From: a virus | DNA length: 64,000 nt | IMG/VR virus record: IMGVR_UViG_3300028388_001285 | Span: 1-64,000 of that record | Direction: 5' to 3' (one strand) | Part shown: positions 6,731-58,100 of the stretch, in pieces | How positions within the stretch are numbered: the stretch's first letter is position 1 | How the letters are laid out: the number at the start of each line of letters is the position of its first letter | Made by a program: the position numbers and the translations under genes | The notes under the pieces: generated by a model | The model's input: only the letters and a program-made list of their open reading frames with translations | Databases searched by the model: none | What the model was told of the DNA's origin: nothing

Positions 6731-7118
6731 GGAGTTTTCGTTTATAATCCAAGGACAGAAAGGAATCCTTTTGCAGTTGGATGAACTCAAAGGGAACTAT
6801 GACCCAGACTCACCCATCTATGTACCTAACTTTAAGGACGGGCATACTGATGGAGGCAAGATCGCAGCTAAAATCGACAACATGGAGAAATATGCGACGA
6901 TTGCTACTGTACTACAGATTTCTGATAAAGCCGCAGAGCTTATGAAGGAAGATGGCATGGACATTCAAATAGGTGATCGGGTCTATGTTGATCCCGTCGC
7001 AAAACATGCGCGGAATTGGTTTATTCCAGACAGGCATTACACAGTCAAAAATTATACTGGTATGCTACTGGTACACCCTAATAATATACAAGCTAGAGAA
7101 AAAAGAGAAAATGGCTAA
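6723..7118 (+). CDS. GroES-like co-chaperonin
   Basis: ILLQL...SPIYVP...ATVLQIS...IQIGDRVYV...LLVHPNNIQA mirrors the GroES strand pattern; true start is probably ATG 6723, not 6507. Confidence 0.55.
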   Translation: MDKEFSFIIQGQKGILLQLDELKGNYDPDSPIYVPNFKDGHTDGGKIAAKIDNMEKYATIATVLQISDKAAELMKEDGMDIQIGDRVYVDPVAKHARNWFIPDRHYTVKNYTGMLLVHPNNIQAREKRENG

Positions 7119-7969: not shown

Positions 7970-8470
7970 ATGAATGTACTAACAACATTTGATTTAGATG
8001 TAGACTTCTTTGAGGCTAACGCGCAATTGAAGATTGCTTTTAATGATGTAATTAAAACCAAAGGTGAGGAAGCTTCACAGTTCATGTGGTCAATCGCACT
8101 GATGGTCCACCCAGATTCCAAGTACCATAACACTAGTACAAGCTTTAGACAAAAGTTAATTAGAGATGAGTACTTCGCTATAGACTGGGAAGATGAATTC
8201 ACTATTGAAACAATTGATAAATTTAAACATCTTTGCCTAACTAAACAACAGCAGTTTCTCATAGCTTGAGAAAACAAGTTGGAAGAGCGAGATCGTTTTA
8301 TCGAATCGGAACCATACTCAGAAGACAACTATGAAATGCTAGAAAAGCTCATGGGTAATTCTGATAAAATGTGGGAAAGGTACAAGAAATGTTTAAAAGA
8401 TGTTGAGGATGAAAAAGCACACATTAGTGGTGGAGCGATGGAATCACTCGGCGAACAAAATATTATATAA
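7970..8470 (+). CDS. conserved crAss-like phage protein (1 in-frame TGA at 8267)
   Basis: ORFs 7970-8269 and 8279-8470 are in frame: FLIA[TGA]ENKLEERDRFI...GGAMESLGE. Confidence 0.75.
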
Positions 8471-8471
8471 T

Positions 8472-9221
8472 ATGTTTAAGAACTTATCGTTGATATTTGG
8501 AGGATTGTTAATCCTTTTGATAGCAACCACAATATTCCATAAGTGTCAGTCAGACCGTCACATTGACGATGTCTCAACGGCTTTGGAATTCGCGGAACAG
8601 AAAGCTCATGTGAATGACTCTTTGTTACAAGTAAACAATGAACAGTGGGATATAGAAGAAGCTAAGTTGCTCGATTCTATTATGACACTGAACGATGAAT
8701 TAGAAGCTCGGCCCCAGATCATTAGATGGGCATACGGGAAATCTTATAAAGACGAATACAGAATTGCACAAGATTCATTAGAGCACTACAAGGCAATTGC
8801 GGATTTGTATGATACAATAGTACCAAAATTACAGAACGAACTTATAGCGACAGCAGATGCTTTGTTTGCAGCTGAGTGTGCTAGAGATTCGGCAGTACAA
8901 GCATTGTGGGAATATACCCCAGATGACTATGTATTTAAAAATGATTCAGTATCATTCCATTTAACTTACGAAGCTGATACAACTAGTTTGTATGATCCAG
9001 AAGTAGGGCATATGGTAGAGACCCGGCAAGTTACACCGGTACTCACATATGAGATCACAGTAAAACCAAAATTTTATATTAAGGAATTACGTAAACGCAA
9101 GTTATTCAAACGAGGCATTTACGAGATAGGTGTGATATCAAATAATCCAGGAGTATTATTTGAAGACAATACAGCACCAGTAAGGTTTAAAAAAGGCACT
9201 CTAGTATGGAATCGAAAATAA
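8472..9221 (+). CDS. membrane-anchored coiled-coil protein, putative spanin
   Basis: N-terminal TM helix, long coiled coil and beta-rich C-terminus. Confidence 0.5.
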   Translation: MFKNLSLIFGGLLILLIATTIFHKCQSDRHIDDVSTALEFAEQKAHVNDSLLQVNNEQWDIEEAKLLDSIMTLNDELEARPQIIRWAYGKSYKDEYRIAQDSLEHYKAIADLYDTIVPKLQNELIATADALFAAECARDSAVQALWEYTPDDYVFKNDSVSFHLTYEADTTSLYDPEVGHMVETRQVTPVLTYEITVKPKFYIKELRKRKLFKRGIYEIGVISNNPGVLFEDNTAPVRFKKGTLVWNRK

Positions 9222-9272
9222 GAAAAGACGGAGACTGTGACAGTTGTATACTTAGTGAATATTGCAACGGCA

Positions 9273-9351
9273 GTTGTTAGGAAATCGCCTTAGGATCGGT
9301 AGTGGTCCAGTGTTTCTGGGCTGCTATCGGCTAAGGTAAAACACTACAACT
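9273..9351 (+). other. long irregular intergenic RNA hairpin
   Basis: nested pairings AGTTGT/ACAACT, GCCTTAG/CTAAGGT and GTAGTGGTCCAG/CTGGGCTGCTAT. Confidence 0.55.
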
Positions 9352-9446
9352 ATGGGCAAACAAATTTCAGTGAAACCGAAGAAGATAGCTAAGAGAGAAG
9401 GCAAGAAAAAGGAAGTTAAGAAAGTAACACCTAGAAGGAATTAGAT

Positions 9447-9665
9447 ATGGCTAAGATGACAATAGTGAGAGAAAGAAAACCCCTCACAAAGCCTCTTATA
9501 CGAGAGGCTCTGGGGGAGGTTGGCATACGGTTAACCGAGGGTAATCCATACACGTACATGGCCGATTGGGTGTCCCTAGTTGACAGGATGTATAACCTAT
9601 TTGAAGGCGCTCAAATAAACACATTTAGAGTAGAAGAGGATGAGAAAAAAGATAAAAGCAAATAA
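9447..9665 (+). CDS. hypothetical protein
   Basis: 72-aa ORF. Confidence 0.6.
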   Translation: MAKMTIVRERKPLTKPLIREALGEVGIRLTEGNPYTYMADWVSLVDRMYNLFEGAQINTFRVEEDEKKDKSK

Positions 9666-9912
9666 TTTTAAACTTGAAAGGGTAGAGCAATTATACGATG
9701 ATGAGGCAACGTTAGATTATATGGGAGAGAGTTGGGCTAAAGATGCACCTCACGAAGAAGAAAAACCGAAGCCACAAACCGCATATGTTACGGAGGTAAA
9801 TGTATCGGGAGAAACTGCTGCTATCATAGTGAACTTGTTGAAAAACGCTGGCGTAAACTTTGGTTGGAACCCAGCACAGAATTTACATATTTCCTCCCTA
9901 ACTGAAGTATAG
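9640..9912 (+). CDS. hypothetical protein
   Basis: 90-aa ORF. Confidence 0.6.
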   Translation: MRKKIKANNFKLERVEQLYDDEATLDYMGESWAKDAPHEEEKPKPQTAYVTEVNVSGETAAIIVNLLKNAGVNFGWNPAQNLHISSLTEV

Positions 9913-9915
9913 ATT

Positions 9916-10320
9916 ATGAGGTATTTAATCAGTTTATTCATACTAACATTTGCAGTGAGCCTTAGTGCTCAGAAGGACGATATAGTCGCAGCATTTAATA
10001 TAAGCGATGCCGTCCATATCCATAAAGGAGAACATATCAACATTGACCCGAAACCGGAGTCTATAGTATTTCACTGGTACTCAGTACGTTTCAACTATAG
10101 AGTTGAGAACTCTCCCAAAAGAGTGGAGAAAGTTATTGAAGGTTGTTGGGTACGTAACCCACAGTACAAAGGTACTAAGAGGTGGAAGTGCAAGCAGGTC
10201 AAATACAAGGTAAAGAATGGGAATATTATTGAAAAGATACGTGGAACTAAAGGTAAGTTTTTATACAAAATAAAACCGGCCCGTACGATAACCCCCTATA
10301 AACTAAACTACTATAACTAA
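9916..10320 (+). CDS. secreted protein with SPI signal peptide
   Basis: MRYLISLFILTFAVSLSA|Q, a Bacteroidota-style signal peptide. Confidence 0.7.
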   Translation: MRYLISLFILTFAVSLSAQKDDIVAAFNISDAVHIHKGEHINIDPKPESIVFHWYSVRFNYRVENSPKRVEKVIEGCWVRNPQYKGTKRWKCKQVKYKVKNGNIIEKIRGTKGKFLYKIKPARTITPYKLNYYN

Positions 10321-10619
10321 AAAGCACCCCATGTTTATAAGTATGGAAGAGGCGAAGGCTAAAGAGAAGTGGGAATACGAAACGGAGAAAAAACTCATGG
10401 AAGATCCAGAGTATCGTAAGATGTACTACAGAATAATGAGTGGATATTATGCAGGAAAAGCAAAAGAACTCAGAGAAAAAGAAGGGATTAGGCAAGAGAA
10501 CTAACTCTGGTAAATGGAAGAGACCCTCTGCAACCTTAACTGAAGAGCAGAGTAAAGATTTAAAGAAACAAGTAGATAAGATACCACTCTTCGAAGATGG
10601 TAACTAAAGAAATGTATAT

Positions 10620-10718
10620 CTAGCTGTAGAGCGCAGCTGTTCACGGCACTTACCCTGGTATAAAGGTAAGTATAAATGTGAAAGTTCCAGATGGAGAGAG
10701 CTCAGGTGATGCAGTTAG
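10620..10718 (+). other. long irregular RNA hairpin directly upstream of the tRNA
   Basis: nested stems CTAGCTGTA/TGCAGTTAG, GAGC/GCTC, TTCAC/GTGAA and ACTTACC/GGTAAGT. Confidence 0.55.
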
Positions 10719-10730
10719 ATAAACAAAGAA

Positions 10731-10823
10731 GTGCGGTTAGACCGGGAAGGGCTCCGGGGCTGTCTTCAAAACAGTGTGGTCGGTCCAAACGACTTCAGAA
10801 GGGTTCGAATCCTTTGCCGCATG
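10731..10823 (+). tRNA. opal-decoding tRNA, anticodon UCA, long variable arm
   Basis: acceptor GTGCGGT/GCCGCAT, D stem CCGG/CCGG, anticodon arm GCTGT-CTTCAAA-ACAGT (TCA at 10766-10768), variable stem GGTCG/CGACT, T arm AAGGG-TTCGAAT-CCTTT, discriminator G followed by CTA. Confidence 0.9.
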
Positions 10824-10913
10824 CTATGAATTACAAAGAAGTAGGCACAATAGCAGAGCATGAAACAATGAAGATAGTTTTGAAGAATACATGGACGAGA
10901 TAATAAATTAATT

Positions 10914-11237
10914 ATGGGAAGCGGAAGGGTGGAAGGTATTAAGTTCGATGAGTGTGGAAACGATCCTAGAATGGTCGAAGAGTTTATGAAGAACCGACAT
11001 TTAACGGAGGTACGAAGCAAATTATTCAAAGACCAAGTTATTCTAGGCACTAGTTGTTTTCATATATCAAATGGTGGAGAGGTAACGTACGTACCACCAA
11101 ATGAATGGCCCGACTCCACTGTTACGACAGAGAGGGTATCCATAGAAGACATGATAGAAATATTTGGAGACATACTTACTGATAGTCAAAAAAAGTCGTT
11201 AAGCAAATGGAACACAGAAAAGAAAAATGGACGATAG
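10914..11237 (+). CDS. hypothetical protein
   Basis: 107-aa ORF. Confidence 0.6.
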   Translation: MGSGRVEGIKFDECGNDPRMVEEFMKNRHLTEVRSKLFKDQVILGTSCFHISNGGEVTYVPPNEWPDSTVTTERVSIEDMIEIFGDILTDSQKKSLSKWNTEKKNGR

Positions 11238-11896: not shown

Positions 11897-12222
11897 GGGC
11901 GTGACGTGGCATCGACATGTGCGAGGAAGGATAAGCGAGAGATACACAACAACAAAAGGCAATTATTACATTGACCAGTTGAAAGAAGCTGTAGCAGCTT
12001 TGGAACAACTCTGGAATGAGCGCACCAGACCAAGAAAAGTGCTCACTGTGGTACAACATTACTACGCATAGAAGGTTTGTAGTTTCCTAATGAGGACTTC
12101 ACGTCCACAATAAAAGAACTACTGGTGGAGTTTGGCTGACGAAGGTTGGCCCCAATTTTCATCTCGTTTGAGTTTATTTGGAACGTATATGGACCTGGGT
12201 TCGACACCCAGCACGTCCACTA
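11897..12222 (+). ncRNA. ssrA: tmRNA (transfer-messenger RNA)
   Basis: 5' GGGCGTG pairs with 3' CACGTCC, giving G3.U70 and A73 (Ala identity); GG..TCGAC 5' motif; P2 ATGTGCG/CGTATAT; GGAC followed by T arm CTGGG-TTCGACA-CCCAG; internal tag ORF 11958-12071. Confidence 0.88.
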
Positions 12223-12761: not shown

Positions 12762-14438
12762 ATGAAGAAAGATATAACTTTCCATAACAAAGCCCGCACT
12801 GGGCTGATCAACGGAATCAAAGTTATTGCCAATGCTGTAGGCGCAACGTTAGGCCCGAAAGGGAGGAATGTAGTTATCGAGAAATCATACGGTGCTCCAC
12901 ATGTTACTAAAGACGGAGTTACAGTTGCTGGGAGTGTTGTACTTGAAGATGCTGTAGAAAATTTAGGAGCTCAAATCCTTAAGCAAGCGGCAGCTAAAAC
13001 TGTCAAAGAGGCAGGAGATGGTACTACTACTTCTATAGTGTTGGCGCAGAAATTGGTAGAAGAGGCACATAGACAGATATCTAATGGTGCAAACCCAATT
13101 GATATCAAGCGTGGTATGGAGCAAGCCAGCAAAGAGGTAGTAAAGAAACTGCAAGAATACTCTGTACCAGTGAACGACGATTTCGATAAAATTGAACAGA
13201 TAGCAACTATATCTGCTAATAATGATGTAGAGATAGGACAATTAATCAGACAAGCTTTTGAAGCTGTAGGCAAAGACGGCATCGTAGCGGTAGAAGAATC
13301 CAAGTCAGTTGACACCTTCGTGAATAAATCAGAGGGTATGCAGTTTGATCGTGGATTTATCTCCCCATATTTTGCTAATAATGCTAAAGGTACCTGCGAA
13401 TTTGAAGACCCGTATGTACTCATATACGACAAGAAGATTCGTGGTACTGGTGATATTGTACCTATACTGGAAAAGGTGGCGCAGAAACAGAAGCCCATTC
13501 TTATCATAGCCGAGGAAGTAGAAGCACAAGCTTTAACTTTGTTGGTTCTGAATAAGATGCAAAGGGGCGCACAATTTTGTGCTGTCAAAGCTCCAGCATT
13601 TGGAGACCGGAGACGTAAGGTTTTACAGGATATCGCGACCGTTACTGGTGGCACACTGATAAGTGAAACTGTTGGAAGGACTCTGGAAGATGTAACATTA
13701 GCAGATCTTGGTAGAGCTGAAAAGATTCAAATTACTAAAGATGACACGACGATTATTAGAGGCGCGGGCTCGCCAGAAGAAATTGCTCACAGAATTGAGC
13801 AAGTCAAAAACGAGATTAATACTACAGAGTCCGAGTATGAACTCAGTAAAACTAAAGAACGTCTCGCCAAGTTGGTGGGAGGTGTTGCCGTATTACACAT
13901 TGGAGCAGCCACTGAGGTCGAGTTAACTGAGAAAAAAGACCGTGTCGAAGACGCATTAAAGGCTACTCAAGCCGCACTTGAAGAAGGTATCCTTCCCGGA
14001 GCCGGTTCATCTTATATAGCGGCTGCACAAGATTATCAACCACCTAGCATTCTGAATAACAGAGATCAGTTAGCTGGAGTACGATGTTTGGAAGCAGCGT
14101 TAGAGCAACCACTACGCATCATATCCGAGAATGCAGGAAGACCTGCTGACTTGGTCCTTTCGAGAGTTAAAGAAGCTATGAGCTTAATTACTCACGATGA
14201 ATTGGAGAGTGGTGACGGTTCATATGCGGTTAAATTCAATCAAGGGTTTGACGCAAATAACGGCAGTATTGTAGATTTACGGGAACATGGGATTATAGAT
14301 CCAACTAAGGTAGTTAGAGTAGCATTGGAAAACGCAGTTAGTGTAGCCGGTATGTTGTTAATGACAGAGGTTACGGTGACTGAAAAAGAAGAACTTAATT
14401 TAGACATCCCTGGAGGAATGCCTCCACCAATGCAATAA
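12762..14438 (+). CDS. groEL: chaperonin GroEL (Cpn60)
   Basis: [52 protein letters not shown] motifs. Confidence 0.98.
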
Positions 14439-14440
14439 AA

Positions 14441-15217
14441 ATGAGATTTGCTAATTTTACACAAAAAGTTTTAACTGCCCTATGTATCATGGGATTCTTT
14501 TTGCACTTTGCAGCTCACGCACAGACTAACAATGATACGGTATATGTATACCCATTCTTGTTCCAAACTGAGAACGCTGCTGAGATTCAAATATTCCTAG
14601 ATGGACCACAGGCGTATCAAGATTCGATCACGTCAATTCAGTTTCCCGTAACATTCTTCGGGGGAGTACCATCAGGTGTTGAGTACCATAATGGACTGGC
14701 TACGAAGCTGATGAATACTAATATAAAGGATAATCAGGTATTATTTTCCTGGTTAACACCTACACTTGAGATGTTTAAGACATCCCCACTTGCACCAATT
14801 TTAACTATAAAGTTTGATAAGCCAGGAGTGGATTCTATACATTTCGGTGACTCAGATTGGATGCGAGTAGAGTTTAGTACCATCACTGCTAGAGATACTG
14901 TACCACCGATTGTCACAATCGAAGCATTACCTTGGAAACTTGGTTACGTACAAGAAGGTGCTGGATTAGAAGATTATGCACCTGCGATAGTAAATACTAT
15001 CAGTGCCGGAGATAGTAAGATGATTAAGGTATATCCAAACCCGACTACCGGGACTGTGAGATTTGAAGCCATTACACCACCTAACCGTATGAGGATCTAT
15101 GATTTAGCGGGTAAGGTTATGTACGATGGAGAGTTTAAACATGAGGTGTATTTCAGCCAGACTGGCATATTCTTTGTACAACTGGATGATATCATTATAA
15201 AAGTAATTAGACAATAA
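14441..15217 (+). CDS. secreted protein with cohesin-like beta domain and type IX secretion (T9SS) type A C-terminal sorting domain
   Basis: signal peptide ...AAHA|Q; C-terminus IKVYPNPTTG...IYDLAGK...GIFFVQL...KVIRQ. Confidence 0.85.
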   Translation: MRFANFTQKVLTALCIMGFFLHFAAHAQTNNDTVYVYPFLFQTENAAEIQIFLDGPQAYQDSITSIQFPVTFFGGVPSGVEYHNGLATKLMNTNIKDNQVLFSWLTPTLEMFKTSPLAPILTIKFDKPGVDSIHFGDSDWMRVEFSTITARDTVPPIVTIEALPWKLGYVQEGAGLEDYAPAIVNTISAGDSKMIKVYPNPTTGTVRFEAITPPNRMRIYDLAGKVMYDGEFKHEVYFSQTGIFFVQLDDIIIKVIRQ

Positions 15218-16604: not shown

Positions 16605-16622
16605 ACTACTAATAAAGTTATA

Positions 16623-18911
16623 GTGCTAATAAACTACGAACAATATTTAATCAAAGAAGTACCGGCGTTCCACCCACTCTCCGAGAAGTATGTGCATTTC
16701 TGGAAACATGAGAAGCGCAAGTGTATTGAAGGCTGCTGAGTATCTGGTAAGTGGATGCCCGGTAAGCTGTACTTCTATGTGAATTACGGTACTATTAAGT
16801 TAAACAAGGATGGAGCTAAAGTTAAGTCTTACGGGCGGCCTTGATTGCGTAACTTAGAATGAGAATTTTTCTATAATTGAGCTGAAGCTAGGGGCTTTTC
16901 CGGCTTCACAAAAGACACACAATATACCTGTTTGAGGGACGTCCTGGAACTCAGAGAAGAGGGTATATTAAACGCACCACACTACATAAAGGCGCAACAT
17001 CCAGAAGCCGTTAGAGAAGACGGTACACTGAAGCAGTATATACCAGCCCGCGAATACCTTCGCAAGATACACCCACACAACTTAGGATCACCTATATACA
17101 AGAACGAAGCTAAGAATCTGTTTATGATCGGAGCTCGTGGTTACGGTAAATCGTTCTGTGTAGGAGTAGGCATAGTAGCACATGAGTTCTTATTCGATGG
17201 TAAGACCAGCTACAACTTGAATGACCCTATCACTGCTGCGGAAATCGTAGTGGGGGCAGGAGATGCTAAGTACTCCAGTGAGACTTTGGGTAAAACTAAA
17301 GTAGCATTAGATAACTTACCTGGAGGTATGGAGATCAATGGAGTTTATTATCCATGCCCATTTTACAAGCAATACAAAGGTAGCTGGACCCCGGCTAGGC
17401 AAATCGAACACCTCTATAAGAAGAAGATTGGAGGAAGCTGGACATATGGAGGTACTGGTTCAAACATCAAGCACAGAACGTTCAAGGATAATCCTTTCGC
17501 CGCTAACGGCACACGTCCCGGTGTAATGATATTTGAGGAAGTAGGTATGTTCGAGAATTTGCGTGAATCCTATAACGCTAGTGTAGAATGTCAGAGATAC
17601 GGTTCTGTAAAGTTCGGTTCTATGATGTTCTTAGGTACTGGTGGTGATATGGAGGGAGGTGGTACTCTTGATGCACAGGAATTGTTCTACAATCCTGATA
17701 ACTTCGACTGTATAACCTTTCCGGATATCTGGGAGAACAGGGGTAAAATCGGCTATTTTGTACCTGCGTATAAAGGTTTGGATAAGTTCAAGCCCATGAA
17801 GAAGTATAGTGACGGCAAGTTCTGGACAATGTATCAGGATGGAGAGACCGACTATGATGCTGCTAAAACATTCCTCAACAAGCATAGAGATAAACTCAGA
17901 CAATCTAAGGGTTCTATGTCAGCTTTGGAGGGGGAGATTATTAACCGCCCACAGGTACCGTCTGAAGTATTCCTTCAGAAACACGGTAACATATTCCCAG
18001 TAACTGAGCTTAGAGATAGATTAGTGAAGTTGGAAGAAAGCGGTAGGTGGAAGATGTTAGAGAAGAACGTATCATTATACTTAGACCCGAAATCGAAAGA
18101 ATACAATGGTGTCAATTACAAGATTGATGTCAAGAATAGGTTAAACCCTATCAACAAATACCCTTGGAAAGAATCCGAAAGAGAGGGCTGCGTGACTATT
18201 TATGAGTTTCCAAAGCTTATAGATGACAGAGTTCCGGAAGGAGCCTATATAATTGGACATGACCCTTACGCAAATGATGACCCAAGTGGCGAATCGTTAG
18301 CAGCTGTTTATGTGCTTAAGACCAAGAAGCATTTCAGCAAGCTCGGACATGACGAAATAGTAGCTACTTATGTGGCACGTCCATATGCTGGACGACATGT
18401 CGTAAACGAAACTATACTCAAGCTATCTCTGATGTATGGTAATGCGAAGATTTACTTCGAGAACGTTCGAGGAAATGTGAAAGAGTACTTCGAAAAGATT
18501 AAGAAATTACACCTTTTAGCCAAACAGCCCACAACAGTACTGTCTAAGAAGGCTTCATATATGCATGGTTCTGCGGTAGTATATGGGTATCCCATGTCAA
18601 GTAGAGCGATGAAGATGGAGGCTATACAATATGTTAGGGACTGGTTATTGGAAGAAAGAGAGGTTGACGGCGATAGAATAGTATACAATCTAGATAGAAT
18701 CTGGGATAGAGCCTTGCTACAGGAACTCATAGCCTTTAATATGGACGGTAACTTTGACCGTGTTATGGCGCTAGCAGGCTGCATAGTTGGGTTGAATGAG
18801 ACCCATAACCAATACGAGAAAGAATTAGTCTCAGAATCTAAAGTAGACCAAGTAGTAAGCTTTCTAGTCGACAACTCATATATATTTAACAACACGACTA
18901 GACCATGATAG
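16623..18911 (+). CDS. terL: terminase large subunit (4 in-frame TGA in the N-terminus)
   Basis: GTG 16623; FWKHEKRKCIEGC[TGA]VSGKWMPGKLYFYVN...RP[TGA]LRNLE[TGA]EFFYN[TGA]AEARGFSGF; Walker A GARGYGKS, Walker B IFEEVG, nuclease IGHDPY and GNFDRVMA; ends TGA-TAG. Confidence 0.95.
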
Positions 18912-28228: not shown

Positions 28229-31200
28229 ATGGCCGGAATTAGAAAATACTTGTATATAACGGATATATCAGCTTGCGACTGAAAGTCGTGTAGTGCTGGA
28301 GCTCTGCGTATTAAACAGTTTACGTTTATAAACGATGAGACTGGAAGTAACGCACCTGCTGTAAGTGCGCCGAATACACTGCCTACATCTCCTGCTGATG
28401 AGGCTGTCCTAATTGAAACTTGGGATGACATTACCCGTTACTGGGAATACAATTGCGGTACTGGTACATGGTCACATGTATTAGATATTGCGCTGGGTGC
28501 TACTACAACGTTTGTGGCGCTGACAGATACCCCTAGCTCCTTTACTGGAGAAGGGGATAAGTACGTTAAGGTGAATACTGGGGCAACTGCCTTAGAATTC
28601 TCGAACATAACTGCATCTGAAGTTGTGTCAGTACCATATGGTGTATTAACTTCCACTAATGTGCAGGATGCTCTCAATGAGATACAGACAAACGTAGATA
28701 GTTTAAGCACTAACTTTACTTTCATAGATCTAGACGATACTCCTGCAACCTATAATGGTTCTGCGGCTGATATAGTCAGAACTAATGTAACTAATACCGG
28801 GTTGGAATTCCACACACTAACCAAGTCAGATCTTGGTTTGGGCAATGTAGAGAATACAGCATTGTCAACTTGGGCTGGAAGTACGAACATAACTACAGTA
28901 GGAACTATAGGAGCTGGTACATGGCAAGGTACAGCAATAGCTGATGCCTATGTATCTGGGGCTGCGTACTGGGATAGCAAGCAAGATGGATTAACCTTCG
29001 GCATTGCAGATACTAACACAGTAGTTATAAATGCTACAGATGTAGCTGCTTTAGACTATGCACAGTTCACTGTACAAGGTCTGAGAGGTAGGGATACATC
29101 TGAAGTCAAACAAGATCTCAGCCTAGAGAATGTAGCTAACGTAGATATAACTACGGTAACTGACGTATCTAGTTATGGCTGGGTACTAGATGAAGACGCA
29201 ATGTCTTCAGACGACGACACAAAAGTTCCAACACAACAATCAGTTAAGGCGTATGTGGACGCAGCTGTAGTTGGAATATATACACACAAGGGAAGCTACG
29301 ATGCTGCAACTAACACACCTGACTTAGATACTAGCCCAAGCGGAATCTCTAAAGGCGATGCTTATACAGTATCTGTTGCAGGTACATTTTTCACAGAAGC
29401 TGTAGAAATAGGTGATGTATTAATAGCAGATCAAGACTCCCCCACACTTCTTAGTCACTGGACTAGGATAAACAAGAACATTGACGTAGCCACTACAACC
29501 TCAGCAGGTATTGTAGAGTTAGCTACTGATGGAGAAGTCGCTGCCAACGTAGCTGTACAGGGTAATGACTCACGATTAAGTGATGCTAGAACTCCAGTAG
29601 CGCATACACATAGCACGAGCGATATCACTAGTGGTACGTTCGACAATGCTAGAATTGCGGAAAGTAATGTAACGCAACACGTAGCGGCTATAGATCACGG
29701 CTCCCTAGCTGGAGTCAGTGACGATGACCATACTATGTACACTAGAGCTGATGGTACTAGGGACTTTAGTGCAACAGTGAGCTACGCCTCACACCCTACC
29801 TTCACCTCTGATACCGAACTGGTAGATAAGAAATATGTAGACGACGAGGTAATAGCTTCTGGAGGCTACAATGACGAAAGCGCGCAGGATGCCATAGGCA
29901 CTATACTGTTAGATAGTTCCGAAATTGACTTTACGTATGATGACGGTACTCCAAGTATAACTGCAACATTAGTGAACAGTAGTATCGACGAAACCAAGTT
30001 AGATGTAAGTGTGAATGCTAGTTTAGATTTAGCCGACACTTCACTACAATCTGGTGACAATATTTCTGTACTAACTAATGATTCAGGGTACTTAACCGGT
30101 AACGAGAGTATTACTCTGACCGGAGACCTCAGCGGGACTGGCACCACCTCAATTAATGCGAGCCTTGCTGCTGACACAGTAGGTGTTAGTGAATTGAATA
30201 CCACTGGTACCCCAGACGGAACGAAGTTCCTTAGGGACGATATGACCTGGGTTACAGTAAGTACTTCCGAGAGTAATGACTTGGCAACTGACGGTGTGAC
30301 CGGAATAGCTGACGATCAACTAGTGGTAGGTACTGCGAGTGGTACAGCCGCTTATAAAACATTAACTTCAGGAATACTAACTTATGACACTACGACAAAT
30401 AATTTTACGTCTATTACTGATAGCAGTTCTAATTGGGACGCTGCCTATACTCATGTTAGTAATAATGGTACTGACCATGCTTACATTGACCAAGACGTCA
30501 CTAGTACTGGTACTCCTACTTTTGCTTCTGTTGACGTAGGAAACACGGGACTCACAGTAGGTACTTCTGTACCATTCTCTGATTCAAGTGGAACGTTGAC
30601 GTTACAGAATGTGGATGCAATCGACGCAACCACCGAGAGTACATTAGAAGCGGCCCTAGATCATAATAGTCTGCAAGGTTTAACTACAGGAGATCCACAC
30701 ACGCAGTATTCATTAGTAGATGGTTCAAGAGATTATACTGCTAAGGTAGCTTATTCCGCACACCCCACATTCACAGCTGACACTGAAATAGTGGACAAGA
30801 AGTATGTGGACGACGCTATAACAGCCGGTGGAGGATACACCGATGAAGATGCACAAGATGCAGTTGCTACTGCACTTACTGATACTAGTGAGATAGCTTG
30901 GACATATGCCGACATAGCTGGTGAGATCACAGCCGACATTGTAGCTGGCAGTATAGATGAGACTAAACTCGACACTAGTGTGAACGCTAGTTTAGATTTA
31001 GCGGACTCAGCCCTACAGTCGGGAGATAGTGTATCTGATCTAACCAATGATGCTGGGTATTTACTATCTACGGACATAGACACATTAGCGGAATTGAACG
31101 CTATTGTAGGTGACGCTACACTAATTGACACTACTGATAGTAGGTTGTCAGATGCTAGAACACCTACGGCACACAACCACACAGCGTCAGAGATTACTGA

Positions 31201-34200
31201 TTTTGATACTGAGGTATCGAATAATACTAGTGTGGCTGCCAACACTGCTAAAGAGACTAACGTTACCACAAACTTAGGCTACACACCCAGTCCTACCGAT
31301 GGTACTGTTACATCAAGTGACGGTACTGATGCGACGCTTACATTAGCAACGGGTGTGAATGCTGGGCTTTTAGCCCCCGCAGACTTTACTGTATTATCTA
31401 ATACATCTGGTACCAACACTGGAGACCAAGTTGTACCAAGTGACCTTACTGACTTTACTGAGCAGACTGCCTGGAGTGTATTTTACTCCGACGGTGCTGG
31501 AGATGTAACGGAGTTAGCTTTGGGAGCATCTGGCACTGTGTTGCAATCAAACGGCGCAGCTGCCGCACCTACATTTGAAACAACTTCTTCTGTAGAAGCA
31601 CTCTCTGATTTAACTGACATAGACGGTCTGAATTACACTGCTGGTAACCTACTGGTAGCTGATGGTACTGACAGCTATGATTCTGGTAAATTGGAAACAA
31701 CAAGCTTAGGTACAGATATATCAGACATGTTTGGCATTGTAGATGGAATGGCATTCGATAAACCATCCCTCAGCATTGCTGATGTAGCTGGCGATCTAGT
31801 ATTAAGTGTCACCAACATTGCTGGAGGTGATATGGAATTCTGGATTGGTGGAGAGAAGTCGGTTTTGGATTGCGATCCTACCGCAGCTACAGTTACCCTC
31901 ACTGAGGGCACTGACGCTAACACACCTGCTACTAACTACATATATGTAACTAACTCTGGAGGGACTGCGACACTTCAAGCAAGTACAACGTTACCTACAG
32001 GGGCATTTGCATGGATAGGAAAAGTTGTAGTACCAGACTCAGTCACATGGGGAACTACTGGAGCCTATGCGTTCCAGAGATACACGGAAGCCTTTATAAA
32101 TAGTTCTAGGGGTGCTCTCTCACACGAGCGTGAGAAACTACGGGCCTTAGGTGCTGTATACATTAATGGTGTAAATCAGACACTGACTATAGATACTGTA
32201 GCTTCACCAGATAGTGTACATCTAGAAACTACTACGGGCACAATTTACCAACTACACCGACAAACTTTTCCAGCGTTTACTACTGGACCGTATTACTATG
32301 GTAATGGTACCAATATATACGAACAGATCAGTGACCTCAATGGGGTTTTGGAATTGGTAGATGGTACAGCCATTGCCGATAACGATAGATATAACTTAGT
32401 CGTATGAGGAGCAGTTAACATAACCACTGGAGAAAGTAAGTTGTTTGTAAACACACCAACTGGTGTCTATTCTTCGGATGCCAATGCAATAGCTGACGCA
32501 AACAATACAGCAGATTACAGTGTACCAGACGATATGCGATCCGTAGCATTCTTGGTAGCTAGACTAGTGTTGCGGTACGATGCGCAGGGAGGCGGAGAGT
32601 TTAGCGCACTAGGTGACGGAACCTATTCATTGCTGGGCGTACCTGTAGGAGTCAGATCGGGAGGATCTGGAGCTGTAGCTTCTAGTGAATTTTCTGACTC
32701 ACAGTTTAGATTATTCTCTGATACGGATAGTACTGCTCAGATAGCTTTAGATGCAGGTAATGTTACTACTGGAAATGTTCGTACCATAACAATGGCGGAC
32801 ACCGATGTAGACTTAGCCAATTTGCCTACAGCTGCTGAGAAGACTATACTGGGTAACACTTCAGGAAGTAATACCGGAGACCAAACTACTATAGTAGGGA
32901 TCACTGGAACCAAGGCAGAATTTGATGCTGCTGTTACAGACGGCAATTTCTTGTATGTAGGCGATGCTCCAACGGCGCACACTCATACAGCATCAGAGGT
33001 AACAGACTTCGACACTGAAGTAAGTAACAATACAGATGTAGCGGCTAACACATCTGCAAGACACACACAACATACAGATACTGGAACTACCAGCCAAACG
33101 TTCACACTACACAGCGGAGATGCTTCTCCCGTGAAAGTGAAGAACTCTAGCGGTGAGTTACAGGTAAGAAATAATGCCGATAGTGCTTACGCTGATCTGC
33201 GAGTAGCTAACCTCACTGTAGAGGGCACTACTACCACGATTAACTCAGAGACGCTTACTATCGACGACAATATAATTGTACTCAACAATAATGAAGCTGG
33301 CACTCCTTCGGAGAATGCTGGCGTAGAAGTCGAACGTGGTACTTCAACAAACGCTTCCTTAATATGGGACGAAAGCTCCGATGTATGGAAAGCTGGAGAG
33401 TCCGGCTCTGAAACTGAGATCTCATTGCTTGGACACTCACACTCAATCACTGATGTCACTGGGACTAAGGCACAATTTGATTCAGCCTTATCTGACGGTT
33501 CGTTCGCCTATTCTGGGGACGCTCCGACAGCGCACGTACATGCTGCTTCAGATGTAACATCTGGAACATTCCATAACGATAGGATATCGCAGAGCAGTGT
33601 ACTGCAACATGAAGGAGGAATCAACCATGATAATTTGTTTGGATTTTCTAACGATGAACACGTTGCACACAGTACTGTCAGTATTGCCACACAGCATTCA
33701 TTGACAGGCGGCGGCACTATAGCTGCCACTAGAACATTAAATCTAGTCAATGATGCAGCCTCACCAGGCAACAGTAAGTTGTACGGTACAGATGGTAGTG
33801 GCACGAAAGGGTGGTATGATCAACCTATTGCTGGAACAGTTGATGGCAGTGGAGCTGCTGGACAAGTAGCATACTGGTCAGACACTGACACTTTAACTAG
33901 TAATGCTATACTAAGCTTAAACCCAGGTGGTAATCAAGTAACAATAAATGACGGGGTGTTAAGCCTTGAGGAGCGAGCTGCTGCTATAACTAGCTCTGCT
34001 GGTTACGGGCAGATATGGGTAAAGAATGACAGCCCAAATAACTTGTACTTCACTGGCGATGACGGTGTGGATATAAAGTTGAATTTAGTAGTTGGTACTG
34101 ATGTTCAGGCATACAGCTCTAACCTAGATTCATGGGCAGCAGTAAACGAATCATCTTATTACAACTCTACGGAGACAGACAGTGCGATAAGTACTGCTGT

Positions 34201-36181
34201 AGGAGATTACACTCTGACTACTGACTTGGCATCCACAGCTAACGCTAAAGGGGCTAGTCTAATAGGAATAGAAGATAGTGGGACATTGTTTGCTGCCACT
34301 AATGTAGAAGCAGCTTTAGCCGAGCTTGCTGGAGCAAGTTATGTAGACGCTACTAATGGTGCGGCCAATCGCATAGCTGTATTCACTGATGTGGATACAG
34401 TAAATGGTGATGCTGACTTTACCTGGAATGGTACTACGCTAGTAGTTAACGGACAGAGTACGATACAGCAATATAACAATGGAGCTAATAGTGTGTTTAC
34501 ATATAAAGCTGGAGGACAAGATCTCAACAGCTTTAGAATGGTTACTGATTTAGATAGTTCGGCTAATCTTGAATCCGTCAAATTTACCACATATACGACC
34601 TCTGCGGCTGCTGATGCAGGACAGTTTATTTTTGAGGTGGATGAAACACAGAAGCTTGTTATTGACAGTGGAGGAATAGAAGTTACAGGAACTATTACTG
34701 GAGATTTAACCGGTAACGTAACTGGGAATGTCTCAGGAACAGCTGCTACTGTAACAGCGGCAGCCCAACCTAACATTACAACACTTGGGACATTGACCTC
34801 ATTGACGGTAGACACTATAAACATAGACAGTAATAACATAACTGGCTTAAGTGGAAATCTCAACATTACTCCAGCAGCGGGAGGAAGCATCACTTTAGAT
34901 AATACAATAGACATTGATGCCGGTGTAGTTACCGGAGCCACGTCAATTACTTCTACCAGTTTTGTTGGAGACTTGACTGGAAATGCTGATACCGTAACAA
35001 CTAATGCGAATCTTACTGGCGAAGTTACCTCTACAGGTAACGCAGCAGTAATAGATTCTACTGCTATATCTAATAAGACTCTAGTGACTGCCGCTACTGG
35101 CGACATGTTTTTAATTACCGATGCATCTGATTCTGGAAACTTAAAGCGAGTTAATGCCATTGATTTTCTAGGTACAGGTACTGTTACCGCTACTGACGGA
35201 GCAGATAATCGGATTGCAGTGTTCACTAACTCTTCAAATATTGAAGGTGACGCAGGACTTACTTGGGATGGAGTAGGTAATAAGTTCATTGTTGAAGGTG
35301 ATATCCTTATAAATTCTGACGGAGGAAGTCCAAGTTTATCTCTCAAAGAAGACACAACTAATAATGTCGGTCTATATACCACATTCAATTCAGGCAATCT
35401 AGAGAGAGCTTATATCAACACTAAAAGTGATGGCGGAGCTGACTACGGTAGATTTGAAATCTATGTAAAAGACACTCTAACACTCACACTAGATGACGAT
35501 GGCGCAGATTTAGAAGGAAGTTTGTTCCTTAAAGAGCAGGCAGCCGCTGCCACTGATGTCACAGGTTACGGACAACTCTGAGCTAAGACTGATGGATCAT
35601 TATGGTTCACTGATGATGTGGGAACCTCTACAGATCTACTTGCTGCCGCATCTGGAATGGCAAGCTTTACTGTTACCGCTGACAGCGGGACAAACCAGAC
35701 AATAACTAACGCACAAACATTAGACATAGCTGGAGGTACTAATATCACAACTACTGTTGCGGATACCGACACTGTGACCATCAATTTAGATAGTCACAAT
35801 CATACTATGTCAGAACTTAGTGATCGCACTGAGTACATAATGATAAATGAATTCCTCGCAAGTACTACTATCGAGGATGGAGACGGTGAGGTAGCTTCAA
35901 TGATACCCGTCGACTTAAACAATTACTATATTATCTCTATGGAAGCTAAAGCTGTTTCAGCTACCGGCTCGGACGCTACTACTGTAACGGTCGAGAAGAA
36001 TGGTACGGCAATAACTGGGTTAACTGTGACACTTAATACAGGCAACTCTTGGTACGCTTCCGATACGCCTACTAGCTCGACGCAAGTGGCAACTGGAGAT
36101 ATACTTAGACTTTCAATTTCCTCTACCACTGGGACCGCCACAGGTTTAGTTGGAGTAATTAAACTGAGGAAAACATCTTAA
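28229..36181 (+). CDS. giant tail fibre protein, about 2650 aa (3 in-frame TGA at 28280, 32405, 35579)
   Basis: three track ORFs plus an upstream segment fuse in one frame; T/S/D/G-rich with HxH motifs and DDTKVPTQQSVKAYVD fibre motifs. Confidence 0.85.
29725..31065 (+). repeat. internal duplication of about 120 aa in the fibre
   Basis: HTMYTRADG...HPTFTSDTELVDKKYVDD...IDETKLDVSVNASLDLADTSLQSGD (~29725-30095) vs HTQYSLVDG...HPTFTADTEIVDKKYVDD...IDETKLDTSVNASLDLADSALQSGD (~30697-31065). Confidence 0.85.
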
Positions 36182-45088: not shown

Positions 45089-45977
45089 ATCGGTTCTATA
45101 CGATTTGTCTACGCTTGTTCCAGAGAACGAATGGAATGACTTAAAGTTTACGGAGTGAGCTATTAAAGCCCTACGTAAGTTGAAGTCTGAAGTTAAATTA
45201 GAAGAGGCCGTAGCTATTAGGAATCTAGTAGAACACAAAGCGCAGCTGCCTAACGATCTAACGTATCTTACGCAAGTTGCCTACCGACCAGAGTTACCAT
45301 CTGATGAGATAGAGGAACTCACACGAATCATGAATCTCCAAGGGGAAGAGTGGAACACAGCGGTAACAGACCATATGTTTAATCCTAGCGGACTTCCAGA
45401 GAAAGCCGTACGATCATTATATGCGTCTGGTTTGAACAAGTGGTACCCAATGCGAGCTTCTAGTTCTCCATTTATGTCTGGAATACTTATTACTGGCACT
45501 CCTTACAACAGCGTAGATTGGACAACTCCTAACTTGCAGGGGGATCACGAATACATAGTCGATTCAAGCATGTGCTTAACGTCGACGCTCTCTGATGCGG
45601 TGTTAGCTATATCGTATATGAGATACCCCGTAAAAGCTAATGGGGACACACTTATACCCGACGATGAGGATTTGAAAGAAGCAATAGTACACTACTGTCT
45701 GTATAGATACTGGTTGACTAGAAGTTTCTTACGTGAACCAAACGCCGACAAAGAAAGAGACTATCATCTGTCACGGTACGAGGTGTTAATGGCCAAGGCT
45801 GGCGGAGAATTAAACTTACCTACTTTAGATGAATTAGAAAACCTCAAGAACCTGACTAACCGATTAGTTCCTAGATCTAATCAGTACGACAACTTCTTTA
45901 GTAAGTTGAACAACAGGGAATCTGCTGACACCATGTCACACTGAGGTAATCATGATACTAACAATTATGCCAACTAA
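45060..45977 (+). CDS. tail tubular / ring protein (in-frame TGA at 45156 and 45942)
   Basis: MTRIRYTSIKSV...E[TGA]AIKAL...KAQLPNDL...ISY...LIPDDEDLKEAIVHY. Confidence 0.8.
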
Positions 45978-48900: not shown

Positions 48901-50259
48901 CCAATTACCAGACTCTTCACCGACAAGGATAACCTATTCGCACTATCCACTAAAGCTTTATGGACTGTACCTACTAGGCCACAGACGTTGCAAACATCTG
49001 AGGGTACTATATATGTAGGTACAGGAGATGCGTTGGCACTACCGCCAAAGCGTGTAGTTTATCCTGGGTTTGCTTACGGAGGCACTAAGGATATATTGTC
49101 ACTAGTCAGTACAGAGTATGGGAGTGTATGGGCAGATAGTCTAACAGGTAAGGTATTTCATTGGCGAGGACAATTGGAAGAGATCTCTTCTAATGGTATG
49201 CGTAACTGGTTTGAAGAGAATACTAAGTCTAAGATAAAGGAACAGATGTTTGCTTTCTCTTTGGAGAACAACATACCAAGCGTACCAACTGATTTATATG
49301 GTGTAGGTCTAGTGGGCACGTATGATCCTAGATATCGAAGATACATATTAAGTTTCCGTGACTACGAGATACTTGACATGGAGAACTTCGAAGGTGGTGT
49401 GGAAGGATTTGAATCATTAACCTCTTACAATCCTAGTAAGCTATACTTTGACCTAACTGCGGGAGACTTCTTTAGGGTTAAGTACATTGCTGCTACTGGT
49501 TGGTACAAATTACCTATACCGTATTTGGATAGAAACACATTCCGTAACAGATCTTGGACGGTGTCATATTCATTTCCACACAAGGCTTGGGTGAGCTTTC
49601 ACTCATACTTACCAGCATACATGTTCAATGATGAAGATACATTCTATACTGGATTACATAATAGTCTGTGGATGTTCACACATAACTACGGGGAACATCA
49701 GAAATACTATGGAAAGAAGTACGACCATATACTAGACTTTATCGTGAATGAGCAACCAATACTGGATAAGACTTATAGTAGCCTTAAAGTAATAAGTGAT
49801 ATCAGTCGGTATGATGAGGAACACGAGAACTATATAGAGTCTCTGCTAGAGTTCTTCACATATGGTATGTTCTACAACTCCAACCAAACTAGTGGTAAGC
49901 AACAGATATTTAGGAAGGACGGTTCAAGTCCATTCTTGTCTACATATGATAACCAGAATCAAATGGTACTGGCAGAGAAAGTAGATGAGCACTGGAATAT
50001 ATCTGGGTTTAGGGATCTAGGTATAGGACATAACTCCTACCCAATATGGACAAACGCTTGGGATGAAGTACAGTCTGACTATTATATAGATAAGGTACCT
50101 AACCCGGAAGCCATTGAGACAGACAAGAGTCTGTTTAATCACGGCAGGTTTAGGGATGCTTGGCTAGGCGTACGACTATACCATGATGGTGAAGTACAAG
50201 GTAACTACAGAATAAACACTGACCTAATTAATACACTACAAAGAATATCTTATAGGTAA
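45967..50259 (+). CDS. tail stabilization / muzzle protein, about 1430 aa (in-frame TGA at 47698 and 48160)
   Basis: GMNKD...YRFALNAV, IYFTD, YMRDEVYAF, VRHHKFPD, GGDTFI, SWTVSYS...WVSFHSYLP; three ORFs fuse in frame. Confidence 0.9.
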
Positions 50260-55190: not shown

Positions 55191-58100
55191 ATGCCAGAAA
55201 TAAAAGATGTCGTAAGGGCCATTCTGCACCAAAAGGCGCAGCAGGGTTTTCTTGCTGGAAATCCTTCTGTAAGCAGAGAGGGTTTTGTAAATCTAGATAA
55301 ATTTGGGAAATATGACAAGACGCTCACACCTGGAACATGGGAGAACGTCAGAAACTTGTCCCCAAGAATGGCTCAGGAGTACCACAGAGGTACAGAGCAG
55401 CCATGAAACCACAAATATGCAAGGGGGATTGCCAACTTTGTCACAGGTACTGCTTCTAAGGTTGGAGCCACTGTAGGTTTTGCAGCCGGAGCTCTCGGAG
55501 CGCTAGCAACCGGAGAGTTAAGTACGGTCTACGATAATGCTGTAGTGGACGCCTTTACGAAGGCTGAAGCGGCTATGGAGATACCTATTTACGTAAAAAG
55601 ACAGTATGCTGAAGGCAACCTTATACATAAGATGGGTACCACTGAGTTCTGAGCTAAGGACTTAGGAGAAGGTCTTGAATTCTTGGCCAGTATGTTTATA
55701 CCAACTTACGGTATAGGACTTGCAGGTAAGGGTTTACAGGCTGTAGCTAAATCTGCTAAAGTGGCTAAGGGATTGGCTCGCGGAGAGCGCGTGCTTACTA
55801 CTGTACTGAACAGTACAGTTGAGGCAGGGTTTGAAGCCAAACATGCTAACGATGAGATTAGAGACCAGCTAGCTAGGCAGAGGGGGTACATATCATATGA
55901 TTTATTACCACCTGATATACAACAGGAGATCTCGGTTTTAGCGGGACAAGCTGCTGCTAGAACTTTCTGGGGCAATATGATTGGTCTGATGTTACCCAAC
56001 TATCTGGAGTCTGGTTGGGCTAGGAGTATTATGGGGTTTGACAAAGCAGGTTCCAATGTACGACAAGCCATACGTAAGAAAGCACTATCCCCTGACGATA
56101 TAGTTAAGGCTAAGTCCAAGTGGAAAGCAGCTACTAAGGGTCTGGTGTCCGAGGGTCTTTGGGAGGAGAACTTTCAAGAAGCTGTAGGACAGTTTGAAGC
56201 TAGATTAGCGGAAGGTAAGATCGAAAGAGAAGACTACGCTAAAGAATTAGTACGTAACCTCAGCAACAATGCATGGGGTTTTGCTCGTGCAGTACCTAAC
56301 TTACCGTTCGCACCGTTTGGTGTAGACTTCGGTATAGCTGCTAAGGCTGGCACTGAGCAAGATGCTGGTGCCACTGCTATCGCACTCGGAGCTATCATAG
56401 GTTCTGGAATGAGTACTGTGTCGCAAGCGATGGACAACGCTAGACTGCGAGAATCAGCTGAGCGTGAGAACTCACTTTGAGGTGACCTAGTGAAGTTCAA
56501 GGAAACATTAGACAAGATACTGGTTGACGATCAGAAATCTATATATAAAACTTTCGGAACTGAGACCGACGAAGAAGGTAACGAGACTCCTATCTATGTT
56601 AATCCTAAGACTGGAGCTACCGAGATTGACCCAGATAAATTACGTAATCTAGCTCTGGCTAACACTGTAGACTTAAACTTCTTTGATGAAGCTGTGTTTG
56701 CAGATGTTAACAACGATGAGTTGTGGGCCACATTCAACGATAAGATGGCGGCAGCCTCATATGGGTGGTACTTAGGATCATCCGGGATATCTAAAGAAGA
56801 TGCACAAGACTTACTTGAAGGTAGAGAAGATGCCAATGAGATACTGTCACTCATGGACTCGTTTGAAGAAGCGGAGAGGGACTCCCAGACTTCCGACGAT
56901 ATTCGTGGTGAGCAGGTCGACAAGAAATTTAAACGGTTCTTGCATAGGATCAATTACTTCCTTAATGCTCGTGGCAAGATGCTGGACGAGATGTATAGTA
57001 AGAACCCTGAGGTTATCGGTCCTATGGTGGAAGATAATCAGGCAGCTTTACAGAAGGTAACTAACGCTAGCTCTAGGAAAGCTTTGAAGAGTGAGTTTGT
57101 AGAAGCTGTAGGTGGTATAGATACTCTCAATAGAGAGGTTAAAGAACTAGAGACTGAGTTTGAAGCTGTTAAGAAGACTGACCCAGCTAAGGCTGATGAG
57201 ATAGCTAGGAAGATAAGTACTAAGAACTATCTAATGTCAGAGAGAATGCACGTAGACGGCTACGATGCAAACTTACAAGGTATAGATGCGGAGAACAACA
57301 AGGCGCTTGTAGATGAGTACTTTAGGTCTAAGCATAACAACCCTACTACCTTAGGTATGAACCCATCAATGGCGGTAAGCTACCAGTCATTACGGGATCG
57401 TAAGTACTATAGGTTAGGTAAAGCTTACATGGCCGCTAAGGATATCAACGACATAGCTGATGAATTTTTAGAGGAAAGAGATATTGATGACTTGAGTGTA
57501 GGTATTGAAGCGCTCAGAGGATCTGCTAAATATTTTAATGGTGAGAACTCTGATGTAACTGCTGCTACCGAAAAGATAAATACAGCGTTAGATGAAGAAA
57601 TAGACAAGATAAACATAGGACTTCAGGAAGTAAACGAAGCCATGTATAATTTGGCCGGTGAAAACCTGGGTGCTGAAGAGACGAAGTTAGTAGCTACGCA
57701 TCTGAAGGATACACAGAGTCAGTTACAAACACAGATGGGTCGTATTAAGTTGTTACGCGAGGAGATGTCCTCAGCGCATGAAGCTATTAATGCTACTGAC
57801 GATGAGTACGCTGCATGGAATACTGAGGATGGTCTGAAGATGGAACACTTCCGTAACCTGACTAAGAAGATATGGGCATTAGATAGCTTAGCTCTGGAAT
57901 CATTCGATAACCTTGCTAAGACTATGCAGTTCATGCAACTGTTGTTAGGAATAGAAGCTGCCTTCGAGGATAGAACTGACATCAGCGATGACCTAAAGGC
58001 AGATGTAGCTGCTGAAATACTACAGCTTAAGGAGATACTTAAAGCTTACAGAGAAGCGGCTGAAAAGAATATGCAATCCAGAGCCTCGAAACAGGTGAGA

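Follow-up and report, generated by a model that had tools for sequence, protein, structure and literature searches.

A phage tRNA(UCA) with tryptophan-like features carries a conserved CCA hairpin as its extra arm

Which amino acid does a phage insert at UGA when its tRNA combines a UCA anticodon with a long variable arm, and what purpose could that arm serve? The tRNA gene that raises this question lies in a stretch of viral DNA of 64,000 nucleotides (hereafter, the window), the first 64 kb of an IMG/VR record that consists of one 81,997-base contig (41% G+C, estimated by CheckV to be 81% complete). Matches to phage families were obtained for the terminase, portal and major head protein. The terminase has its nearest matches in Cellulophaga phage phi14:2 (33% identity), Flavobacterium phages and crAss-like gut phages; all of these infect Bacteroidota, and the host is very likely a Bacteroidota bacterium with the standard code. 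ARAGORN made one tRNA call (10731-10824, anticodon tca) in the window and in the whole record, and this tRNA was also the only one recovered from the record by R1, a covariance model that we built from eight homologues. The parts of the gene are as follows.

10731..10823, + strand: complete suppressor tRNA(UCA), G1 through discriminator G73 (ARAGORN, Rfam, R1 and the fold)
10731..10737, + strand: 5′ strand of the acceptor stem, GUGCGGU, with its partner GCCGCAU at 10816-10822 (sequence and acceptor tabulation)
10738..10757, + strand: four-nucleotide linker UAGA and D arm, consisting of CCGG, the loop GAAGGGCU (8 nt) and CCGG (sequence)
10759..10775, + strand: decoding anticodon arm, GCUGU CUUCAAA ACAGU, with the anticodon UCA at 10766-10768
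10778..10794, + strand: extra arm, GGUCG GUCCAAA CGACU, with 5 bp and a 7-nt loop and CCA at 10785-10787 (homologue alignment)
10799..10815, + strand: T arm, AAGGG UUCGAAU CCUUU, 5 bp (sequence)

The acceptor stem has seven pairs (G1.U72, U2-A71, G3-C70, C4-G69, G5-C68, G6-C67 and U7.G66), which gives a 7/5 acceptor/T fold; the discriminator G73 lies at 10823, and the CCA end is not encoded in the gene. The variable region is 23 nt long and reads GU, then GGUCG GUCCAAA CGACU, then UCAG. All of the structural items listed in an earlier note on this DNA (UCA, 7/5, G1.U72, G73, the 4-nt linker, the CCGG/CCGG D stem and the 23-nt variable region) are present in the sequence. Absent from that note was the point that the loop of the variable arm, GUCCAAA, is a copy of an anticodon loop with CCA. 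R1 scored the tRNA at 52.9 bits (E 5e-12), as a model that matches tRNAs in general, and Rfam at its gathering thresholds had no match anywhere in the window.

The same tRNA is carried by three relatives of this phage, whose terminases are 59-66% identical to its own, 2.7-3.7 kb upstream of the terminase gene. Homologues at the same place in three related contigs argue that the tRNA is not a chance set of hairpins. Their extra-arm stems are CCAGC/GCUGG (L006:5017-5112), CCAAAG/CUUUGG (L001:5925-6691) and CUAGC/GCUAG (L005, about 6966-7067, a tRNA that ARAGORN missed), so that, together with the window, there are four different stems with the loop UCCAA in all four. The four-nucleotide linker ahead of the D stem is also found in L006 and L001. 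The window tRNA is a divergent crAss-like version, with G1.U72 and this linker. In L001, an insertion of 671 nt in the anticodon loop divides the tRNA in two; ARAGORN treats the insertion as an intron.

What TGA stands for can be read from protein alignments. In 19 genes compared with those of relatives in their true frames, TGA sites of the window faced tryptophan at 23 of 38 non-stop aligned residues; the others were phenylalanine (four), isoleucine, leucine and aspartate (two each), and serine, asparagine, glutamate, histidine and alanine (one each). The background frequencies are 1.0% for tryptophan and 6.8% for serine. In the reverse direction, in-frame TGA of the relatives aligned with this phage's tryptophan at 33 of 40 sites and with its serine at none of the 40. 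The gene alignments with relatives placed no TGA opposite cysteine, and no in-frame TAG or TAA was seen in the 19 genes. Because TGA stands at tryptophan positions in both directions of alignment, we read UGA as tryptophan, and tryptophan is very probably the residue inserted. The impression in the earlier note that UGA sites look like tryptophan is thereby upheld. Individual sites are placed in the following features.

16605..18911, + strand: terminase large subunit gene (PHROG match and tblastn against relatives); its true start codon is not fixed
8267..8269, + strand: in-frame TGA that aligns with tryptophan in four of five relatives, within an ORF upstream of the tRNA gene
55650..55652, + strand: in-frame TGA that aligns with tryptophan in both relatives covering the site, within a giant ORF

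The N-terminal part of the terminase contains four in-frame TGA, at 16737, 16842, 16860 and 16878. Its frame runs upstream of the first standard-code start, through all four, and the relatives align across this region. Three of the four fall on tryptophans that are invariant among relatives using TGG, as in the motif LE[W]EFFYN[W]AEARGF. In-frame TGA occur on both strands and are not restricted to late genes. The recoding is sparse, affecting at most about 15% of tryptophan codons: a rough gene set contains about 320 TGG and no more than about 55 in-frame TGA. The relatives that carry the tRNA (L006, L001 and L005) have 5-18 in-frame TGA each in conserved genes; a further relative, L003, has none, and the 10 kb that precede its terminase gene contained no spare-arm tRNA. 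With TGA at tryptophan positions and a tRNA(UCA), this phage has both marks of the TGA-to-Trp phages that carry suppressor tRNA(UCA). As for sequence context, about half of 28 listed in-frame TGA are followed by G, and the next codon is often one for glycine.

The extra-arm loop GUCCAAA copies the anticodon loop of tRNA-Trp(CCA). We scanned viral contigs with a pattern that fixed the UCA anticodon loop and the T loop, required a long spacing between them and set no condition on the arm. This yielded 31 long tRNA(UCA) genes, 10 of them selC-like and 21 not. [quoted passage not shown] The selC-like tRNAs had G1-C72 and G2-C71 throughout and variable arms without the CCA motif. As a control, UCCA occurred in the variable region of 2 of 82 other class II tRNAs from the same loci, and one of these two is a member of the group that ARAGORN had miscalled.

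We then aligned, without gaps, the hairpins of 19 homologues, including that of the window. The loop bases U-C-C-A were invariant and the following A was present in at least 90%. The stem was 88% paired, with both-sided changes at five of five pairs, and its covariation score was 0.995 versus 0.236 in shuffles, a value that none of the 500 shuffles attained. When the partner strand was displaced by 1-3 columns, pairing fell to 26-45%. The linkers on either side of it are 1 to about 5 nt long, depending on the homologue, and the loop sequence is fixed. Both the decoding loop and the extra-arm loop carry A36-A37-A38. The window tRNA thus has an N-U-C-C-A-A-N loop on a covarying stem between the anticodon and T arms, the features by which we define a group of 'UCA tRNAs with spare CCA hairpin'; this is our own grouping and not a published family. 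A pattern scan of genome contigs gave 120 stretches containing two tRNAs of this kind, in a Phoenicibacter MAG (L143) and a Parabacteroides bin (L202); the remainder were chance matches or selC. We also considered R1 as a means of telling the group apart and rejected it, since selC-like tRNAs score as high as the window tRNA and all kinds of tRNA are matched; its hits did include L028, L005 and the 3′ exon of L001. The L028 tRNA (1370-1467) is a spare-arm member with the extra arm ACCGU CUCCAAA ACGGU and an R1 score of 100.5 bits, which ARAGORN called tRNA-??? with a four-base anticodon.

A likely origin for such a tRNA would be tandem duplication of the anticodon arm of tRNA-Trp. One copy of the arm would have changed to UCA and now decode UGA, and the other would have retained CCA because tryptophanyl-tRNA synthetase (TrpRS) reads it. 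The CCA hairpin might then keep or raise recognition by the host TrpRS after the decoding anticodon had become UCA, as bacterial TrpRS reads C34-C35-A36 along with G73 (PMC9976931). Our best reading, which we consider reasonably probable, is that the phage makes its own opal suppressor of tryptophan identity, in which UCA reads UGA and the CCA arm keeps the tRNA acceptable to the host TrpRS.

The way in which the two arms are attached bears on how this could work. One nucleotide separates the D stem from the UCA arm, as is usual for an anticodon arm, and 4 nt separate the CCA arm from the T stem, which may be compared with the 4-nt variable loop of Bacteroidota tRNA-Trp. With these linkers, either arm could occupy the position of the anticodon arm, and two conformers are conceivable. 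The identity and decoding anticodons would then be physically separated, with TrpRS reading the CCA loop, perhaps in an alternative conformer, and the ribosome using the UCA arm; we put the chance of this arrangement a little short of even. A class II-type extra arm projects from the tRNA core, away from the contact between TrpRS and the anticodon, so the idea of a handle for TrpRS needs an alternative conformer or a new mode of binding. Ordinary tRNA(UCA) genes of 75 nt without the arm occur in other phages (L008 and L123). Furthermore, according to work cited in the Borges et al. preprint, UGA suppressors are tryptophanylated in E. coli (10.1101/2021.08.26.457843), which implies that the extra arm is not strictly needed. 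On account of the arm geometry, the short UCA suppressors and this tryptophanylation, we regard the step in which the spare CCA arm would act as a handle for the host TrpRS as evenly balanced.

Some of the same observations fit a different account, in which tryptophan is inserted at UGA and the CCA hairpin serves another purpose than recognition by TrpRS. The hairpin could be a second, UGG-reading head, a site for a modification enzyme, a stabiliser of the fold or a decoy that draws off a host nuclease or sensor directed at tRNA-Trp. The conservation data would fit any sequence-specific reader of a CCA anticodon loop, both loops have A36-A37-A38, suppressors with UCA and no arm exist, and the geometry of extra arms in tRNA structure disfavours a simple contact with TrpRS. 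However, a UGG-reading head would add little, since U34 of the UCA anticodon already wobbles to UGG, and we know of no host nuclease or sensor that targets tRNA-Trp. Moreover, the loop keeps exactly the bases of the tryptophan identity set (PMC9976931). We think this account unlikely, though it deserves serious consideration.

The proposal that the host charges the tRNA follows from the gene content. We found no TrpRS/TyrRS-type (class Ib) domain, class IIa (SerRS) core or release-factor domain in the 82 kb of this record, which is estimated to be 81% complete, and on that basis a host enzyme must charge the tRNA. The earlier note had pointed to the rest of the genome as a place for a TrpRS, release factors or another UCA tRNA; none of them was found in the 81,997-base record, at 81% completeness. 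A conventional tRNA-Trp(UCA) elsewhere, which the note had raised as a possible decoder of UGA, is likewise not there, the gene at 10731 being the record's sole tRNA. The sequence missing from the record could encode a phage synthetase or another tRNA. Charging by such a phage-encoded synthetase has a precedent, in that two TGA-recoded 'Jade' phages encode TrpRS, and the CheckV completeness of 81% leaves room for a gene of this kind; yet most recoded phages have no synthetase (10.1101/2021.08.26.457843), and 82 kb contained no class Ib or IIa domain. We consider it very improbable.

The body of the tRNA bears on which host enzyme this would be. [quoted passage not shown] The spare-arm set has A-U or G.U at 1-72 in 19 of 23 tRNAs, G73 in 21 and G5-C68 in 20. 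tRNA-Trp(CCA) from the same loci has A-U at 1-72 in 11 of 15 and G73 in 14 of 15, and tRNA-Ser from these loci has G1-C72 in 26 of 30 and G2-C71 in 22 of 30. G1-C72 and G2-C71 are conserved in most bacterial tRNA-Ser, and G1-U72 together with G73 is on record for plant mitochondrial tRNA-Trp (PMC9976931). Bacteroidota tRNA-Trp, from Flavobacterium and Mucilaginibacter (L257 and L258), has A1-U72, G73, the loop CUCCAAA and a 4-nt variable loop. Judged by G1.U72, U2-A71, G5-C68 and G73, the body of the window tRNA looks Trp-like with an added hairpin, and neither Ser- nor Sec-like. It shares with tRNA-Trp(CCA) of these genera G73, a weak first pair, G5-C68, the 7/5 fold and, in the extra arm, the N-U-C-C-A-A-A loop. 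It differs from them in that UCA decodes, in its length (93 versus 72 nt), in its linker (4 versus 2 nt) and in having G1.U72 instead of A1-U72. A canonical bacterial tRNA-Trp would have CCA in the anticodon arm and a variable loop of 4-5 nt, whereas here the anticodon arm has UCA, the variable region is 23 nt and CCA lies in the extra arm. The description 'atypical long-arm tRNA-Trp' in the earlier note agrees with the Trp signature of the acceptor end and with TGA at conserved tryptophan positions.

The other option given in that note, a Ser-derived suppressor, amounts to a serine-type class II tRNA that the host SerRS charges and that inserts serine at TGA. The long variable arm with its 5-bp stem and G73 are all used by SerRS, and some charging by SerRS could occur. 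These features are shared with tRNA-Ser and selC. The note's 'Ser/Sec-like class II body' is not supported: the serine acceptor pairs are absent, and the 7/5 fold and 4-bp D stem are not Sec-like. In place of G1-C72 and G2-C71, the window tRNA has G.U and U-A. For serine identity the size of the extra arm counts and its sequence does not, and SerRS does not read the loop sequence (PMC9976931); here the arm linkers vary and the loop is fixed, the opposite of the pattern expected if the arm were recognised by its size and orientation. In addition, TGA stands opposite serine at 1 of 38 residues, compared with the 6.8% background and 23 for tryptophan, and TGA of relatives never falls on serine of this phage. 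Insertion of serine is therefore very improbable, and the Ser-derived suppressor falls with it.

A selenocysteine tRNA, allo-tRNA or selC*-type relative is scarcely credible: ARAGORN labels the tRNA SeC and Rfam tRNA-Sec (RF01852) is its best Rfam match, but ARAGORN gives this label to every tca tRNA here, two ordinary tRNAs of 75 nt among them, the Rfam score of 36.2 bits (E 5.7e-5) is below the gathering score of 47, TGA is never at cysteine, and the true selC-like tRNAs of the scan stand apart, having G1-C72 and G2-C71 and lacking a CCA hairpin. The structure agrees with the view in the earlier note that this is not a canonical 8/5 tRNA-Sec. The anticodon UCA is shared with tRNA-Sec. The window tRNA differs from it in lacking the 13-bp 8/5 branch and the 6-bp D stem with a 4-nt loop, and has a 7/5 fold and a 4-bp D stem with an 8-nt loop; it differs from tRNA-Ser and selC together in having a conserved arm loop and a codon that stands for tryptophan. 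Allo-tRNAs and selC* tRNA-Cys are also non-canonical and come from metagenomes and phages, some with an opal anticodon and a long arm (Mukai et al., PMC5389517). They have a 12-bp branch (8/4 or 9/3) and serine, alanine or cysteine identity, unlike the 7/5 fold and Trp features seen here. An alternative 9/3 fold of the window tRNA could form only with a U.U mismatch, and L006 does not conserve it.

Phage UCA suppressors and TGA-to-Trp (code 4) recoding have been published, crAss-like phages included, and the same papers note that many suppressors may escape detection as non-canonical (Borges et al., 10.1101/2021.08.26.457843; Yutin et al., PMC7886860; and, on Zeta crAss-like phages, PMC12386605). 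The present system resembles the published ones in its phage-borne UCA tRNA, TGA at tryptophan, standard-code host and absence of a phage synthetase. It differs in that a long extra arm or CCA hairpin is not in their descriptions and in that recoding here is sparse. Full-text literature searches found no description of the spare CCA arm, and as far as we could find, the design is unpublished. How suppressor tRNAs serve as substrates for host synthetases that read the anticodon is a question raised directly by the Borges preprint (10.1101/2021.08.26.457843), and a conserved CCA hairpin would be a natural answer to how they remain good substrates. If our best reading is right, this would be a new tRNA architecture with two anticodon-type arms, by which a phage without its own synthetase reassigns a stop codon and keeps charging efficient. 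It also suggests a design for engineered suppressors of anticodon-dependent synthetases. Standard tools label spare-arm tRNAs 'SeC' or miss them, as ARAGORN missed L005 and miscalled L028, and such misses may partly explain why suppressors are detected in only about one-third of TGA-recoded phages.

A 93-nt amber suppressor tRNA(CUA) on a viral contig (L362) has an arm loop, UUCUAAC, that is near its own anticodon loop, UUCUAAA. Here, too, an anticodon arm seems to have been duplicated. L362 was the one long tRNA(CUA) in a search for amber suppressors that covered 118 stretches; its arm repeats CUA and has no glutamine anticodon, and it therefore lends no support to a general rule of a 'cognate anticodon handle'.

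Additional features lie near the suppressor gene. A tmRNA-like gene (11897-12220, + strand) is called by ARAGORN 1 kb downstream of it and matches Rfam tmRNA at 45.7 bits, below the threshold of 47. Its tRNA-like domain bears the G3.U70 alanine mark. The ARAGORN output reads 'Tag not identified', and the tag that it proposes, APDQEK...FVVS, is unlike the usual degradation tag. ARAGORN found no tmRNA in the relatives. The gene might handle ribosomes that read through UGA stops of the host. A GroEL-type chaperonin (12762-14438, + strand; Pfam Cpn60_TCP1, 250 bits), with zero TGA and zero tryptophan codons, lies between the tRNA and terminase genes, and a weak match to Por_Secre_tail, a type IX secretion sorting domain (14441-15217, + strand; 20.4 bits versus a cut-off of 27), hints at a Bacteroidota host. 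Two relatives have terminase genes whose aligned halves are set apart by about 1.0-1.1 kb, in L005 at about 10219-11215 and in L006 at about 8911-10001; an intron, intein or inserted gene could account for these interruptions.

Two regions of the window, 28229-36181 and 45952-50259 (both + strand), each consist of two or three standard-code ORFs in the same frame with TGA alone between them. The TGA junctions are at 32405 and 35579 in the first run and at 47698 and 48160 in the second. Each run is probably one long protein when TGA is read as tryptophan. A 2,555-aa ORF in the first run (28514-36181), which spans two TGA junctions, has zero homologues among the relatives. The giant frame that starts at 55191 runs to the end of the window at 64000 and on to 73292 in the genome (L136), giving about 6,033 codons when TGA is read as tryptophan. 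It contains in-frame TGA at 55404, 55650, 56478 and 72900, and one of its TGA-free stretches is 5,473 codons long.
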